Position numbers and translations under genes: made by a program. Source: a virus (lineage: Duplodnaviria > Heunggongvirae > Uroviricota > Caudoviricetes). From it: 5,927 bases of DNA. Under the pieces are notes generated by a model. That model did not search any database. It had not been told where the DNA came from and saw only the letters and a program-made list of their open reading frames with translations. Location: the IMG/VR virus record IMGVR_UViG_2698536458_000009. One strand, 5' to 3'. How positions within the stretch are numbered: position 1 is the stretch's first letter; each line of letters starts with the position of its first letter. Below, piece by piece: positions 3,154 to 5,823 of this stretch.

Positions 3154-3579
3154 TCAATGTACTGCCACAGCATTTCCTGCCGGGCCACCACGGTTCATCT
3201 GATTGAAACCGGCGATTGCCACTGCGACAAAATCATCAGCGTCTCTCACCAGTCGTTCATGCGTCTCCACCAGTTCCCGAAAATAAGCTGAACTGTGGCT
3301 GCGCATTCGAGCCACCAGCGGAGGTGGCATTGCCCTTTCGATCGCAGGTAACAACGCCTGAATTTTTTCAACAGCGTCAGGGGTGTCTTTATCCAGCCAA
3401 CGGAAAATCTTTTGGGTGTTGAGATAAAGCGTGTTGTGCTTGCTGTCGTTATGCAGAACCGGAAACGTCATTCCCAGTTCGAAATAAACCCTGGTTATTT
3501 CAGCTGCCGGAACTTTTTCACCGTCCGGATGCGCCCAGGCTTTCATCGCCATGCGGATGTGTTCATGCTTGATTTTCAT
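3154..3579 (-). CDS. YdaT-family protein (lambda CII-position analogue; annotated in some genomes as a toxin), 141 aa
   Basis: ATG at 3579..3577 overlaps the stop of the upstream cro-like gene (ATGA overlap). N-terminal MKIKHEHI and overall size match my recollection of Rac YdaT; the family call is from memory, not a search. Confidence 0.6.
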   Translation of the reverse strand: MKIKHEHIRMAMKAWAHPDGEKVPAAEITRVYFELGMTFPVLHNDSKHNTLYLNTQKIFRWLDKDTPDAVEKIQALLPAIERAMPPPLVARMRSHSSAYFRELVETHERLVRDADDFVAVAIAGFNQMNRGGPAGNAVAVH

Positions 3580-3839
3580 GAATCAACCCCCGCCGATGGT
3601 TGTGTGTTAGCCTGAAACTCAGCAGGCAAGCCGTCAGTTGGGTTGGGGTAGGTTTTACTGTCAATCTCATGTGGGGTCACCACCCATCCCGTTGCTTCAC
3701 ACCAACGTAATATTTTTTCTCCTGTAAGTTTTGCACGCCCCGTTATAACGTGGCTGACCATCCCTTGGGATGCGCCAACAATCTCAGCAAATGAACTCTG
3801 GGTTATATGAAAATGATGCAAATATTCTCCAAGATTCAT
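3576..3839 (-). CDS. Cro/YdaS-like HTH DNA-binding protein (lytic-side repressor), about 87 aa
   Basis: HTH-like segment QSSFAEIVGASQGMVSHVITG. Divergent from the repressor gene across an AT-rich intergenic region. The ATG at 3839..3837 has an agggcgga purine-rich stretch just upstream and is preferred over the track's ATG at 3866 (MVTHHIGRI extension), which has no RBS. Stop TGA at 3576..3578. Confidence 0.7.
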   Translation of the reverse strand: MNLGEYLHHFHITQSSFAEIVGASQGMVSHVITGRAKLTGEKILRWCEATGWVVTPHEIDSKTYPNPTDGLPAEFQANTQPSAGVDS

Positions 3840-3950
3840 AATCCGCCCTATGTGATGTGTTACCAATGCATAATTAATAGCACTGTTATTTTTAAAAGTA
3901 AATAGTGATGCTATTTCAAAGTGATTAGCAATCTTATTAGAATTGGATGT
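3840..3950. promoter_or_regulatory. Divergent promoter/operator region between the cro-like and repressor genes
   Basis: About 110 bp, AT-rich, non-coding, between divergent HTH genes. Repeated partial palindromes: AATAGCACTGTTATT (3876..3890) and AATAGTGATGCTATT (3901..3915), both of the form AATAG-N5-YTATT and 25 bp apart centre to centre. TAGCA/TGCTA occurs three times and AGTGAT at 3904 and 3920. No -35/-10 hexamers could be assigned confidently. Confidence 0.5.
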
Positions 3951-4451
3951 ATGAAAAGAAAATCATTGTCAGACACCGACCTCAACGCCGCCAGAAGACT
4001 GAAAGAAATCTGGATGGCAAAGAAATCTCAGTTGGGATTGACTCAGGAACGTGCGGCGGAAATTATGGGGTTTTCAACACAAGGGGCGGTAAGTCACTAC
4101 CTAAATGGTCAAACCCCACTAAACCTTGAGGCTGTTCTAAAGTTTGCTGGCTTACTGAAAGTTCCCCCTGAGTCAATCAGGCCAGACATGGTAGATTTGC
4201 TGCAAATTGCAAGGATGTATTGTCGAGAACCACAGCAAGATAACATAGTCGCATTACCAGCAGACACAGAACAAACAGAGGATGAACTACCGTTTGCCGT
4301 AGAGCCGATGGAACGAGATTTAATCCATACGTTCAGAGCTTTTCCGAAAGAAGATCAAGAACACATGCTTCAGGAGATGAAAGATAAAAAAGAATCAATG
4401 GATCGTACGGTTGCGCGGTGGTTAGCTGCACAAAAAGGCCGTCGCGCCTAA
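3951..4451 (+). CDS. paaR: HTH (Cro/C1-type) transcriptional repressor, PaaR-like (ParE-associated regulator); candidate prophage repressor lacking a LexA/S24 peptidase domain
   Basis: HTH segment LGLTQERAAEIMGFSTQGAVSHYLNG. First gene of an operon with the PaaA-like and ParE genes, and divergent from the cro-like gene. The ATG at 3951 (MKRKSLSD...) is preferred over the GTG at 3921. The C-terminal part shows no Ala-Gly cleavage site or Ser/Lys dyad region by eye. The paaR symbol is inferred from operon context. Confidence 0.7.
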   Translation: MKRKSLSDTDLNAARRLKEIWMAKKSQLGLTQERAAEIMGFSTQGAVSHYLNGQTPLNLEAVLKFAGLLKVPPESIRPDMVDLLQIARMYCREPQQDNIVALPADTEQTEDELPFAVEPMERDLIHTFRAFPKEDQEHMLQEMKDKKESMDRTVARWLAAQKGRRA

Positions 4452-4470
4452 ATCAGAGGAGATATGTAAA

Positions 4471-4665
4471 ATGAGTACAGTCCTTTCCCCAATGGTTTCA
4501 GAATTTGAGACAGTTGAGCAAGAAAATAGTTACAACGAATGGCTGCGGGCCAAAGTAGCAGCAAGCCTCGCGGATCCCCGCCCGGCGATTCCGCATGATG
4601 AGGTAATGGCGGAAATGGAACAAATTATTGCCCAAATTGCTGCTGCAACTCACAGAGGTGAATAA
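4471..4665 (+). CDS. paaA: PaaA-like antitoxin (ParE-associated antitoxin), 64 aa
   Basis: ATG at 4471 with AGAGGAG 9 nt upstream. The stop TAA (4663..4665) overlaps the ParE ATG (TAATG). The segment SPMVSEFETVEQENSYNEWLRAKVAASLADPRPAIPHDEV closely matches my recollection of E. coli O157 PaaA2; this was not verified by alignment. Confidence 0.8.
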   Translation: MSTVLSPMVSEFETVEQENSYNEWLRAKVAASLADPRPAIPHDEVMAEMEQIIAQIAAATHRGE

Positions 4666-4955
4666 TGTTACCCGTTTTATGGCTACCATCTGCTCGTGAT
4701 GATTTGCGCCAGATCGTAGCCTACATAGCTAAAGAAAATCCCGCGGCAGCACGCAGAATGAAAATTCGAATTGAAACATCCGTTTTGCCGCTCACAGAGC
4801 ATCCTTACCTGTATCCTCCAAGCGAGCGAGTTCTTGGTCTTCGTGAAATTGTAACTCATCCTAACTACATCATCCTTTACCGAGTAACAGCATCAAGCAT
4901 AGAAGTAGTAAATATTGTGCATTCTCGAAGACAGTATCCAGGCAAAAACAGTTAA
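4665..4955 (+). CDS. parE: ParE/RelE-superfamily toxin (ParE-like), 96 aa
   Basis: The ATG overlaps the antitoxin stop, with AGAGGTG 4 nt upstream. ParE-like sequence features: N-terminal WLPSARDDLRQIVAYIAKENPAAARRM and C-terminal REIV...YIILYRV...IEVVNIVHSRR. Stop TAA at 4953..4955. Confidence 0.85.
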   Translation: MLPVLWLPSARDDLRQIVAYIAKENPAAARRMKIRIETSVLPLTEHPYLYPPSERVLGLREIVTHPNYIILYRVTASSIEVVNIVHSRRQYPGKNS

Positions 4956-4971
4956 TTATTCCCGCCGACAG

Positions 4972-4996
4972 AACCACCTTAGGGTGGTTTTTTCTT
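4972..4996 (+). terminator. Putative intrinsic (rho-independent) terminator downstream of parE
   Basis: Stem AACCACC (4972..4978) pairs with GGTGGTT (4983..4989) around loop TTAG, followed by a T-tract (4990..4993, then ctt). It begins 17 nt after the parE stop. Confidence 0.6.
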
Positions 4997-5007
4997 GCCC
5001 CAACAAA

Positions 5008-5115
5008 AAACAATAGCNNNNNNNNNNNNNNNNNNNNNNNNNNNNNNNNNNNNNNNNNNNNNNNNNNNNNNNNNNNNNNNNNNNNNNNNNNNNNNNNNNN
5101 NNNNNNGCTATTGTT
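5008..5115. repeat. Perfect 10-bp inverted repeat (aaacaatagc / gctattgttt) directly abutting both ends of an 89-nt masked segment; unknown palindromic or small element
   Basis: Left arm 5008..5017 and right arm 5107..5116 are exact reverse complements. N-run 5018..5106 lies between them. Confidence 0.4.
5018..5106. other. Masked/undetermined bases (89 N)
   Basis: Run of N in the supplied sequence; content unknown. Confidence 0.99.
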
Positions 5116-5293: not shown

Positions 5294-5446
5294 ATGGATA
5301 CTATCGATCTTGGCAACAACGAATCTCTGGTGTGCGGCGTGTTCCCTAACCAGGATGGAACGTTTACCGCCATGACGTATACCAAAAGCAAAACGTTTAA
5401 AACCGAATCTGGCGCGCGTTGCTGGTTAGCCAGAAACACTGACTGA
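5294..5446 (+). CDS. Small hypothetical protein, about 50 aa (MDTIDLGNNESLVCGVF...)
   Basis: The track ORF 5240..5446 has no RBS at its first ATG. The in-frame ATG at 5294 has GAGG 5 nt upstream (aaatGAGGtcagcATG). Stop TGA at 5444..5446. No family recognised. Confidence 0.45.
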   Translation: MDTIDLGNNESLVCGVFPNQDGTFTAMTYTKSKTFKTESGARCWLARNTD

Positions 5447-5457
5447 TGAGGCTGACG

Positions 5458-5823
5458 ATGGAATTTAAAGATTTACCGTCTGATGTACAGAAAACAGCAG
5501 CTCATACATTGCATTCTGTGCTGCGAGAAATCGGGAAAGATATTGCAAGCGAGCCAGCAAAAGATCTGGCCCGGAAAATCAAGACCGCTTTCGTTGAGCT
5601 TTATAATGTTGGCACTGACTCTGAAACTGTCGAGACCAAGACCGTAAGTTCACCAATATTCTCACTTGAGCCAAGCGTATTATCAGGTGAAATATGCACC
5701 GAGATTTCCAGCGAACTGCTTCCGGTAATACGAGAAGCAATTCGCCGTCGCGGTTTGGATGGAAGTTATGATCATGACGTTCTGCAAGTTCTCAGGACAA
5801 TGGTGACTTCACTGGGGATTTGA
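5458..5823 (+). CDS. Hypothetical acidic protein, about 121 aa (MEFKDLPSDVQKTAAHTL...)
   Basis: The ATG at 5458 has GAGG 6 nt upstream (tgatGAGGctgacgATG). The track's alternative ATG at 5446 overlaps the previous stop (TGATG). No family recognised. It is in the position of early-left genes of a lambdoid phage. Confidence 0.55.
   Translation: MEFKDLPSDVQKTAAHTLHSVLREIGKDIASEPAKDLARKIKTAFVELYNVGTDSETVETKTVSSPIFSLEPSVLSGEICTEISSELLPVIREAIRRRGLDGSYDHDVLQVLRTMVTSLGI

Follow-up and report, generated by a model that had tools for sequence, protein, structure and literature searches.

We found that the gene at positions 3951 to 4451 of the window (the whole stretch of 5,927 nucleotides that was analysed) probably encodes an immunity repressor equivalent to CI, which belongs to a remnant of a lambdoid prophage located at the Shigella sonnei Qin locus. 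In this reading, to which we assign a probability of roughly 0.7, the 166-aa protein carries a small helical tail in the place of the S24 peptidase domain and is relieved by a route that does not involve RecA. The repressor belongs to the short non-cleavable lambdoid repressors, a class that is already known, and joins a DNA-binding domain of the lambda CI type to a tail of the DicA/PaaR2 type. The features of the window that bear on this reading are as follows (coordinates, strand, description and basis).

3154..3579, minus: ydaT, an analogue of CII (Pfam YdaT_toxin; PHROG 163, CII-like activator)
3569..3586, no strand: perfect YdaT box, TTGATT-N6-AATCAA, at the ydaS/ydaT junction (pattern search)
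3576..3839, minus: cro-like HTH gene of 87 aa, an analogue of YdaS, divergent from the repressor gene (Pfam HTH_3; PHROG 35; annotation of a 99.4% identical E. coli locus)
3874..3902, minus: tentative PR-like promoter for ydaS, TTTACT-17-TATTAA, overlapping O-a and O-b (by eye)
3876..3890, no strand: operator-like site O-a, AATAGCACTGTTATT, in an OR1-like position at about -68 from the putative PRM start (pattern search)
3901..3915, no strand: operator-like site O-b, AATAGTGATGCTATT, a perfect half-site palindrome in an OR2-like position at about -43, abutting the -35 element (pattern search)
3915..3943, plus: PRM-like sigma-70 promoter, TTCAAA-17-TAGAAT (promoter scan)
3924..3938, no strand: operator-like site O-c, ATTAGCAATCTTATT, in an OR3-like position within the PRM-like spacer at about -20 (pattern search)
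3951..4451, plus: repressor gene, 166 aa and stop, in the cI position (ORF; homologues; exact S. sonnei matches)
3951..4223, plus: residues 1-91, five-helix DNA-binding domain of the lambda CI type (phmmer, Foldseek, Pfam)
4224..4304, plus: residues 92-118, acidic disordered linker, the mosaic junction between the modules (AlphaFold2, dipeptide scan, DNA homology)
4305..4448, plus: residues 119-166, helical hairpin tail of the DicA/PaaR2 type (AlphaFold2, tail HMM, NCBIfam, PHROG)
4471..4665, plus: paaA antitoxin gene, 64 aa, in the same orientation and 19 bp past the repressor stop (Pfam PaaA2, E=3e-23; PDB 3zbe, E=1.4e-23)
4665..4955, plus: parE toxin gene, 96 aa (Pfam ParE_toxin; PDB 5cw7_B, E=6.7e-37)
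4970..4996, plus: terminator-like hairpin followed by a T-run, after parE (fold energy -15.1 kcal/mol, z = -2.85)

The repressor gene and its control region in Shigella sonnei

The gene runs from an ATG at 3951 to a stop codon at 4449-4451, and the C-terminal sequence of its product is the one quoted in a first-pass annotation of this DNA. That annotation had described a 166-aa protein with an N-terminal HTH, which the ORF and Pfam matches to HTH_3/HTH_31 confirmed. Homologues with 75-100% identity were found in Shigella and E. coli, and the identical protein is encoded in S. sonnei chromosomes and in about 6000 indexed blocks of public assemblies. The repressor gene is therefore real and is intact in thousands of assemblies. 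All full-length homologues begin with MKRK, which favours the ATG at 3951. A start at the upstream GTG at 3921, giving 176 aa, was ruled out by the MKRK starts of the homologues, by the position of the promoter and by the replacement of this codon with GAG in the O104:H4 homologue.

The window is part of an IS-riddled remnant of about 9 kb and is 99-100% identical to loci in six S. sonnei chromosomes. In these chromosomes, host genes lie at most 10 kb away on both sides and IS1 copies are present at the locus; the remnant sits between ydfZ/ydfI-like and ynf/dms genes. No int, Q, lysis or morphogenesis/virion genes were found among the called genes at the S. sonnei locus. Because the called genes lack integration, late-regulation, lysis and virion functions, derepression in S. 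sonnei would yield no phage, and in a remnant of about 9 kb "prophage induction" comes down to the derepression of a few early genes.

The surrounding genes are arranged as in a lambdoid early region. The repressor gene lies opposite the cro-like ydaS gene, ydaS and ydaT are followed by replication genes, ydfA is located downstream in the window, and dicB is found further downstream in some S. sonnei loci. The YdaT box, a motif defined in PMC9986795, was matched once in the pattern search, with 0.06 matches expected by chance. On the other side, paaA and parE occupy the slot after the repressor gene that is held by rexAB in lambda. Among the genes of the window, none is a stronger candidate for the repressor. 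The first-pass annotation had treated the identity of the protein as the immunity repressor as a condition, and both the cI position and this lack of a better candidate support it.

The sequence AATAG-N5-CTATT occurs four times in the window, and three of these matches fall within 63 bp of the 111-bp intergenic region between the repressor gene and ydaS. These three operator-like sites are conserved in three diverged loci that encode the same repressor DNA-binding domain. Their centres are 25 and 23 bp apart, which we take to be close to the geometry of lambda OR. The PRM-like promoter ends at 3943, 7-8 bp before the ATG, so transcription is predicted to start at about 3950/3951. We infer that the repressor mRNA is leaderless, with its start coinciding with the ATG at 3951. 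Leaderless expression of paaR2 has been shown by experiment, and lambda cI has been cited as leaderless (Jurenas 2021, PMC8630535). The PR-like promoter, which was read by eye and is absent from the promoter-scan output, is a putative assignment. A candidate LexA box, CTGTTATTTTTAAAAG at 3883-3898, was discarded as a sign of SOS control: it has one mismatch, it is not conserved in homologous loci, and such sites are not above chance. Neither the window nor the 20-kb S. sonnei loci contain a conserved LexA box.

Domain architecture and the autocleavage apparatus

The DNA-binding domain is a homologue of that of lambda CI. A phmmer search of the PDB matched it to the lambda CI N-terminal domain (NTD) at E=2.9e-9, and the top Foldseek matches were also lambda CI NTDs (for example 3kz3_A, with TM 0.93, rmsd 1.0 A and 40% identity). 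Pfam placed HTH_3 at residues 27-74, and in the full-protein scan the only match was HTH_3/HTH_31 at residues 27-75. The segment GF-TQGAVSHYLN (residues 40-52), which aligns to the HTH segment of lambda CI, is invariant among the homologues except at residue 42.

By eye, the first-pass annotation had seen no autocleavage domain or site in the C-terminal half of the protein, and Pfam, a dipeptide scan, AlphaFold2 and a control protein bore this out. Peptidase S24 (PF00717) was not detected in the full 166-aa protein at E<=0.01, and in residues 85-166 there was no Pfam match to it even at E<=10. The control in a similar Pfam scan, the CI of Stx2 phage F039, is 51.7% identical to residues 2-90 of the repressor and gave Peptidase_S24 at E=2e-28. 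The sole Ala-Gly of the repressor is at residues 66-67, within a helix of the DNA-binding domain. The dipeptide scan found no Ala-Gly after residue 67, linker included, and no Cys-Gly in the whole protein. Only one Ser, S149, lies beyond residue 75, within a long predicted helix, and the C-terminal part offered no S24 alignment against which a Ser/Lys dyad could be placed. AlphaFold2 predicted an all-helical protein with no strands, comprising helices at 8-91, 119-129 and 133-165 and a disordered stretch at 92-118. The structure prediction that had been suggested for the C-terminal domain thus showed no cryptic S24 fold. After the linker there are about 48-54 helical residues, compared with 116 positions in the Pfam S24 profile. 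Since an S24 fold, a cleavage dipeptide in the linker and a dyad are all missing, the sequence and the predicted structure indicate that RecA cannot trigger self-cleavage of the LexA/CI type in this repressor; the first-pass annotation had called such cleavage unlikely.

The linker is the mosaic junction between the DNA-binding domain and the tail. In the linker, pLDDT is below 50 at residues 92-111, no secondary structure was predicted over residues 92-118, and DNA homology to other loci breaks off. The tail was predicted confidently as a hairpin (pLDDT 81-92). A tail HMM scored 76.7 bits against PaaR2, 101.5 against a 133-aa paralogue from O157, 31.0 against DicA and 16.4 against Salmonella P0025, with a background maximum of 10.6 bits over 1200 shuffles. 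NCBIfam NF007257 (DicA) matched residues 106-162 (E=7e-8) and PHROG 5736 also matched the tail; no Pfam family did. The tail is 52% identical to that of PaaR2 over 44 residues in pairwise alignment, and it contains the conserved C-terminal module of PaaR2-type regulators (...LLxxFxAFPExxQ...KKESM...ARWxAAQKxRRA). On a broadened tail profile, GtgR of Gifsy-2 reached 13.7 bits, a score attained by none of 1000 shuffles, and the tail of RacR had no detectable sequence similarity (0.2 bits at best on the tail profiles). Since the likeness to GtgR is weak and that to RacR is nil, a single family is not established for all short repressors.

At least four different N-terminal architectures bear the tail, which is conserved among them at 52-76% identity, and the genome record of the PaaR2-carrying Escherichia phage Evi also encodes the hairpin. 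When the PDB was searched by sequence for a solved structure homologous to the tail, the matches were of the lambda CI NTD type and included no PaaR2 or DicA entry, and Foldseek with the whole model matched the N-terminal domain and not the tail. An exhaustive HMMER search with the 54-residue tail gave 11 representatives, of which several were either fragments or long proteins matched in multiple stretches, probably because of their composition. The distribution of the tail module is therefore narrow. The same tail is found upstream of varied cargo, including a gene of unknown function, HipA_2+DUF3037 and ydfA, while a DicA-like variant precedes HigBA. Judged by this distribution, the tail is a feature of repressors and not of toxin-antitoxin systems. 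We propose that it serves in oligomerisation and/or as a docking module for antirepressors, the docking role being conjectural.

The position of the gene could also be explained if the protein were not an immunity repressor and were instead a dedicated regulator of paaA-parE, that is, a detached antitoxin DNA-binding domain whose tail senses PaaA-ParE. In favour of this, a gap of 19 bp without a terminator separates the gene from the co-oriented paaA-parE downstream, PaaA2 lacks a DNA-binding domain, and the first description of PaaR2 was as a regulator in a toxin-antitoxin system of three components (PMC8630535). We consider this explanation unlikely, as the same tail is carried by repressors without PaaA-ParE, the DNA-binding domain is homologous to that of lambda CI, and the operators are lambda-OR-like and lie between divergent cI-like and cro-like genes. 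In addition, the primary role shown for PaaR2 is the repression of ydaS-ydaT in a lambda-like circuit (PMC8630535). A role of the tail as a PaaA-ParE sensor was ruled out by its occurrence with other downstream genes.

If the protein is the immunity repressor, it could in principle be removed by a host ATP-dependent protease (e.g., ClpXP or Lon) that recognises the conserved C-terminus ...AAQKGRRA, with regulated degradation leading to derepression and no antirepressor involved. Repressors whose DNA-binding domains are unrelated are nearly identical in their last 12 residues, and a basic C-terminus followed by Ala is presumably vaguely like the C-terminal tags of ClpX. Consistent with such a route, "an inherent instability of DicA" has been proposed, together with induction by heat and urea that does not require Rem (Ragunathan 2023, PMC10448788). 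However, the conserved end is equally well explained by oligomer contacts or partner binding, and the C-terminal ends of DicA and P0025 differ, which leaves a protease route improbable.

It is very unlikely that the protein is the crippled leftover of a lambda-type CI that lost its S24 domain during prophage erosion. The element is indeed heavily eroded and full of IS1, and among sequenced phages the DNA-binding domain has its closest relatives in the full-length, S24-bearing CI proteins of Stx2 phages. However, the last 50 residues form a confident helical hairpin and are not out-of-frame debris, the tail is conserved on at least four N-terminal architectures, in DicA and in the phage Evi record, and the gene is intact in thousands of assemblies. 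Cryptic self-cleavage despite the lack of a recognisable S24 sequence, a general possibility in keeping with a local BLASTP alignment to lambda CI that extends weakly into the hinge region, is scarcely credible for a short all-helical C-terminal part set against an S24 profile of 116 positions, with Ala-Gly and Cys-Gly wanting after the start of the linker and with the relatives GfoR, GtgR and GfhR shown to be uncleaved on induction (Lemire 2011, PMC3121763).

Relation to PaaR2, DicA and other repressors

Short non-cleavable CI-like repressors have been described with GfoR and GtgR as examples and with DicA and RacR named as members, and repressors of this class are inactivated by small antirepressors, which are controlled by LexA in the case of Gifsy (Lemire 2011, PMC3121763). 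The repressor of the window shares the length of about 130-170 aa, the N-terminal HTH, the lack of S24 and the cI position opposite a cro-like gene. Its kinship to a characterised member runs through the DicA tail, that to GtgR being weak. Since such repressors form a well-described class, the observation that S24 is absent here is correct but ordinary.

PaaR2 of CP-933P (Sp12) in O157:H7 likewise occupies the cI slot, divergent from ydaS-ydaT and directly upstream of paaA-parE. It is also short, without a peptidase motif, and has a homologous tail and a predicted leaderless start; the crystallised PaaA2 and ParE2 have close homologues in the PaaA and ParE of the window. PaaR2 "lacks the peptidase motif" and was "not reactive to mitomycin C" (Jurenas 2021, PMC8630535), and the O157 prophages Sp6, Sp9 and Sp10 have peptidase-less repressors and showed no induction by mitomycin C (Asadulghani 2009, PMC2669165). 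However, PaaR2 has 123 aa, starts with MQKKE and has no Pfam HTH match, whereas the protein of the window has a lambda-CI-type domain, and the two N-terminal domains cannot be aligned. DNA homology to the CP-933P locus begins only at window position 4386. The CP-933P operators are four 18-bp palindromes with the consensus GTTTAGTAA, in contrast to the three AATAG-N5-CTATT sites. The differences in DNA-binding domain and operators therefore make the 166-aa repressor a heteroimmune relative of PaaR2 and not its orthologue. Identification of the protein as the O157 PaaR2 was rejected, as the PaaR2 of O157:H7, whose published MQKKE N-terminus we confirmed, shares the tail only. The label "PaaR-like" given in the first-pass annotation thus holds for the last ~50 residues and fails for the N-terminal domain. 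paaR2-paaA2-parE2 has been described as a three-component toxin-antitoxin system (Hallez 2010, as cited in Jurenas 2021, PMC8630535). Regulation of a toxin-antitoxin pair and immunity repression are not mutually exclusive roles. PaaR2 is reportedly an octamer, which we did not count as evidence.

DicA (Qin, E. coli K-12) shares the type of chromosomal locus, with ydfA and dicB downstream in the S. sonnei remnant. It is also short (135 aa), lacks Ala-Gly, and has a homologous tail and a divergent cro-like partner. DicA differs in its HTH subtype (Pfam HTH_3 and Phage_CI_repr) and has no toxin-antitoxin pair downstream. Its antirepressor, Rem, is known and is encoded in Qin, whereas no Rem homologue was found near the window. 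Repression by DicA, which is without an Ala-Gly bond, is lifted either by Rem or when the DicA/DicC switch flips spontaneously (Ragunathan 2023, PMC10448788). Lambda CI has a homologous DNA-binding domain, three operators with OR-like spacing, a PRM-like leaderless promoter and an accessory operon after the repressor gene (rexAB in lambda, paaA-parE in the window). Unlike lambda CI, the repressor of the window has no hinge cleavage site, S24 C-terminal domain or Ser/Lys dyad.

GfoR, GfhR and GtgR of the Salmonella Gifsy phages are also short CI-like lambdoid repressors (about 136-150 aa; Lemire 2011, PMC3121763), and GtgR shares the first-helix motif of the tail, LLxLFNxLPExE, but overall similarity is weak. 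Nothing in the window or in the 20 kb around it corresponds to the LexA-controlled dinI-antirepressor-irsA module of Gifsy, and the Gifsy phages are inducible and functional, whereas the S. sonnei element is a remnant. RacR (Rac, E. coli K-12) has the same layout of a helical N-terminal DNA-binding domain, a disordered linker of ~18 aa and a small helical C-terminal domain, and its circuit partners are also ydaS and ydaT; it differs in the HTH and in a tail without sequence likeness.

The Gifsy prophages, Qin, Rac and CP-933P are established cases of S24-less repressors whose derepression is antirepressor-based or bistable. As a discovery, the 166-aa repressor therefore matters little and its value is modest. 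It documents a heteroimmune variant in which the DicA/PaaR2 tail is joined to a lambda-CI-type DNA-binding domain, and it reveals that the tail moves as a module whatever the toxin-antitoxin cargo. The slot after the repressor gene holds interchangeable cargo, including PaaA-ParE, HigBA, a HipA-like pair and genes of unknown function.

Possible routes of derepression

We propose that the repressor is a mosaic of a lambda-CI-type DNA-binding domain, a flexible acidic linker and a tail of ~48 residues, in which the DicA/PaaR2-type tail would replace the S24 autoprotease/oligomerisation domain of lambda CI. Dimers or higher oligomers formed through the tail may bind cooperatively to the three AATAG-N5-CTATT operators from 3876 to 3938. 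The bound repressor would shut the rightward ydaS-ydaT-replication operon and would autoregulate its own leaderless PRM-like transcript, which would also carry paaA-parE as cargo. By analogy with characterised systems, derepression most likely occurs in one of two ways. A small antirepressor may act in trans, as Rem does on DicA and GfoA, GftA and FsoA do on the Gifsy repressors, or the bistable switch formed by the repressor and the Cro-like protein may undergo a stochastic or stress-biased flip, as for PaaR2/YdaS and DicA/DicC.

The first-pass annotation had argued for a non-canonical induction route. Derepression without RecA is a reasonable expectation, but it has already been published for this class, and the S. 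sonnei remnant has no phage to induce. The search for an antirepressor gene that the annotation had suggested came up empty: tblastn with Rem gave no match in the window or in any of the six 20-kb loci of S. sonnei, and no other candidate gene was found there. Rem was therefore rejected as a local antirepressor; the hokD neighbour in a related E. coli prophage (L001) is unrelated to Rem. The annotation had also speculated that ParE could feed into SOS signalling. Since the repressor is not cleavable through RecA, nothing here could receive such feedback, and in the O157 system neither expression state showed SOS activation (Jurenas 2021, PMC8630535).

A further possibility, which we regard as doubtful but worth stating, is that the tail is a portable cassette, transferred to unrelated DNA-binding domains by recombination at the linker, and that beyond oligomerisation it provides a common docking surface for small antirepressors. 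If so, a single antirepressor from one prophage could flip several heteroimmune prophages or remnants that share a cell, which would give a structural explanation for the cross-talk observed by Lemire et al. (PMC3121763). The S. sonnei remnant, with its ParE toxin and DicB, would then still be triggerable by incoming or resident phages.

Within a dead prophage, S. sonnei carries a switch-plus-toxin module that is intact and apparently fixed. Two effects probably account for its retention: the repressor keeps harmful early genes silent, and ParE imposes a cost on losing the region. The module bears on genome stability and possibly on the responses of S. sonnei to superinfecting phages.

Gene, start and operators of the candidate repressor

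The ORF of the candidate repressor is intact, with 166 codons and a stop, and the C-terminal half of its product reads exactly as quoted in the first-pass annotation. About 6000 indexed assembly blocks contain exactly this protein; the gene is hence intact and, it appears, fixed in the Shigella sonnei lineage. It is divergent from a cro-like gene and ydaT, with replication genes beyond these.

3154-3579, divergent: ydaT
3569-3586: perfect YdaT box, TTGATT-N6-AATCAA
3576-3839, divergent: 87-aa cro-like HTH gene
3876-3890, 3901-3915, 3924-3938: operator-like sites O-a, O-b, O-c
3915-3943 (+): sigma-70-like, PRM-like promoter, TTCAAA-17-TAGAAT
3951-4451 (+): repressor candidate (the window protein)
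4471-4665: paaA antitoxin gene
4665-4955: parE toxin gene, with a hairpin and T-run 3' of it

The promoter ends at 3943, so the predicted transcript starts on or adjacent to ATG 3951. We preferred this codon over the in-frame GTG at 3921 because all full-length homologues begin with MKRK, because of the promoter position, and because the GTG is GAG in a homologue locus with 78% identity. The ten codons upstream of the ATG (3921-3950, GTG-started MISNLIRIGC) resemble the homologue gene calls MISKTIRMTT and MISNTIRMLD. This stretch coincides with O-c and the -10 hexamer, so the simplest explanation for its apparent conservation across some homologues is one at the level of DNA.

A pattern search for AATAG-N5-CTATT returned four matches in the entire window, three of them within the 111-bp intergenic region. 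These three are also conserved at three diverged loci that encode repressors with the window-type DNA-binding domain. With the predicted PRM-like start as reference, their centres fall at about -68, -43 and -20, spaced by 25 and 23 bp, which resembles the layout of lambda OR1-OR2-OR3 relative to PRM. The YdaT box follows the motif defined in PMC9986795.

PaaA2 and ParE2, both of which have been crystallised, are close homologues of the paaA and parE products. The antitoxin has a chimeric appearance: its N-terminal toxin-binding part matches CP-933P PaaA2, and its C-terminal end (MAEMEQIIAQIAAATHRGE) resembles not PaaA2 but the antitoxin of the second O157 paralogue (L002:3001-3192).

A CI-type domain and a helical tail without autocleavage apparatus

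Pfam searches of the window protein returned HTH_3/HTH_31 alone (residues 27-75), and the C-terminal 82 residues gave no Peptidase_S24 match even at E<=10. The positive control gave Peptidase_S24 at E=2e-28; it was the CI of Stx2 phage F039, which in its N-terminal domain shares 51.7% identity with window-protein residues 2-90. The sole Ala-Gly (residues 66-67) lies inside the DNA-binding domain rather than the linker, and a dipeptide scan of the protein found no Cys-Gly. The AlphaFold2 model (alignment of 35 sequences, mean pLDDT 78.7) places helices at residues 8-28, 32-39, 45-51, 59-69, 78-91, 119-129 and 133-165, with no secondary structure at 92-118 (pLDDT <50 at 92-111) and no beta strands. 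Because the model is all-helical, a cryptic S24 fold is excluded at the level of prediction. The first-pass annotation had seen no S24-type autocleavage domain in the C-terminal half and had proposed structure prediction as a check; search and model both bear it out. The protein thus shares with the S24 family its DNA-binding domain and none of the other features compared.

The N-terminal domain (residues 1-91) is a homologue of the lambda CI N-terminal domain. A phmmer search against PDB matched the latter over residues 2-81 (E=2.9e-9), and lambda CI N-terminal structures were the top Foldseek matches (3kz3_A, TM 0.93, rmsd 1.0 A, 40% identity). We compared the protein with bona fide PaaR2, taken from an O157:H7 genome: 123 aa, with the MQKKE N-terminus established by N-terminal sequencing (Jurenas 2021, PMC8630535). 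The next gene there encodes a PaaA2 that matches the crystallised protein at every aligned position. The two repressors are alike in their last ~50 residues only, so the earlier label "PaaR-like" holds for the tail (residues 119-166) and not for the rest. A bona fide PaaR2, two amino acids different from that of O157, is also encoded by Escherichia phage Evi (LR597642.1, a deposited 40-kb genome; L025:2420-3003), followed by PaaA2 with one difference from the O157 sequence; parE is not annotated there, and parE-like DNA is present. Immunity regions of the PaaR2 type thus occur outside cryptic prophages as well.

By sequence comparison, the tail is not PaaR2-specific. We made a profile of the tail from homologues of the window protein and scored 1200 shuffled sequences for comparison.

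Scores of the tail profile
133-aa O157 paralogue: 101.5 bits
PaaR2: 76.7 bits
E. coli K-12 DicA: 31.0 bits
Salmonella protein P0025: 16.4 bits
Best of 1200 shuffles: 10.6 bits

Two libraries lend independent support: residues 106-162 are hit by NF007257, the DicA model of NCBIfam (E=7e-8), and PHROG 5736 matches the tail, which no Pfam family covers. A broadened profile detected the first tail helix in Gifsy-2 GtgR at 13.7 bits, a score reached by 0 of 1000 shuffles, and gave no match to RacR or lambda CI.

Tail modularity and the slot behind the repressor

The tail was seen on four repressor architectures, with 52-76% identity to the window protein across classes and 29% for DicA.

Lambda-CI-type domain plus tail, 166 aa (window protein)
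Different HTH domain plus tail, 132-133 aa (E. coli O157 and Salmonella)
PaaR2 domain plus tail, 123 aa
CI-type domain and 133-aa-type HTH in tandem plus tail, 244 aa

DNA homology breakpoints among the loci map to linker codons (linker, residues 92-118). Homology to the window begins at 4324 in the O157 133-aa locus and extends through paaA-parE, covers 4317-4453 only (the tail alone) in a Salmonella locus, and covers 3872-4209 only (operators and N-terminal domain) in a 244-aa locus. The tandem proteins (P0013-P0023, 244-255 aa, e.g. L010:2501-3235) look like fusions between repressors of two heteroimmune types. Most were seen in metagenome and Logan assemblies, with a HipA_2 and DUF3037 gene pair downstream.

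The gene 3' of tail-bearing repressors varies: PaaA-ParE (window), an unknown 112-120-aa gene, HipA_2 plus DUF3037, HigB-HigA, or ydfA (Qin). This makes the tail a feature of the repressor rather than of the toxin-antitoxin pair, and the site after the repressor acts as a slot for cargo, as with rexAB in lambda, a comparison made in PMC9986795. Interchangeable cargo directly after the cI-like repressor was compared in window 4471-4955 and in L007, L010, L013 and L005; one related locus type has nothing between repressor and ydfA. It is conceivable, and in our judgement rather unlikely, that the shared tail serves as a transferable cassette for docking and oligomerisation, letting one antirepressor control several heteroimmune elements.

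Derepression and the setting in Shigella sonnei

The window protein differs from PaaR2 in DNA-binding domain and operators, whereas it has the structure of short non-cleavable repressors, of which it is an uncharacterised heteroimmune member. Alongside its observed composition, homology, operator array and context, its working may be proposed as follows. It would bind the three operators as an oligomer held by the helical tail, repress the rightward ydaS-ydaT-replication operon and autoregulate a leaderless transcript, from which paaA-parE would be expressed as well; RecA would be unable to inactivate the protein. The earlier argument from a missing S24 domain to a derepression route other than RecA is reasonable for this class, but it is not new: PaaR2 has no peptidase motif and is unresponsive to mitomycin C (Jurenas 2021, PMC8630535), and a route other than RecA is likewise described for the Gifsy repressors (Lemire 2011, PMC3121763).

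PaaR2/YdaS (Jurenas 2021, PMC8630535) and DicA/DicC (Ragunathan 2023, PMC10448788) form bistable switches, and derepression comes about when these flip, spontaneously or under the bias of stress. Antirepressors are the other precedent: the small GfoA, GftA and FsoA act on Gifsy repressors, with LexA controlling the Gifsy antirepressors (Lemire 2011, PMC3121763), and Rem acts on DicA (Ragunathan 2023, PMC10448788). The antirepressor search suggested earlier covered the window and six 20-kb S. sonnei loci; no Rem homologue turned up, nor did a convincing LexA box. For these two reasons we favour a bistable switch, possibly with a trans-acting antirepressor from another prophage. A LexA-box-like site between O-a and O-b (3883-3898, CTGTTATTTTTAAAAG; one mismatch to CTGT-N8-ACAG) was rejected as evidence for SOS control: homologous loci do not conserve it, and the window has no more sites of this kind than chance would give. 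The loop from ParE to SOS floated earlier would have no entry point, as the repressor is predicted not to be RecA-sensitive, and neither expression state of the O157 system raised SOS (Jurenas 2021, PMC8630535).

The window is 99-100% identical to S. sonnei chromosomes such as 53G, where about 9 kb of the element remain, flanked by ydfZ/mannitol-dehydrogenase genes and ynf/dms-type host genes; Qin occupies this position in K-12. IS1 copies interrupt the remnant, and its called genes include none for integrase, Q, lysis, head or tail. No phage formation is inducible from it. Masked N runs (1878-1964, about 2088-2105, 5018-5106) break up the DnaC-like and O-like replication genes as well as the stretch that follows the parE terminator; none of them belongs to the repressor finding. 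A 125-aa ORF after ydfA (DUF1391) at 5446-5823, conserved in S. sonnei loci, matches PHROG 33007 (unknown function, E=5e-80) and no Pfam or NCBIfam family. Left of the window, the remnant carries a type II restriction-modification pair (L016:2590-5501), a BsuBI/PstI-type endonuclease and an N6 methyltransferase (Eco57I domain) that in some strains (L019, L020) seems to be split or truncated. Some 2 kb to the right of the window's end, between two IS1 copies, 53G alone has a 262-aa gene with Phage_pRha and Phage_ASH domains (L018:13191-13979), absent from the five other S. sonnei loci; annotations of Rha-family proteins often name them antirepressors or regulators.
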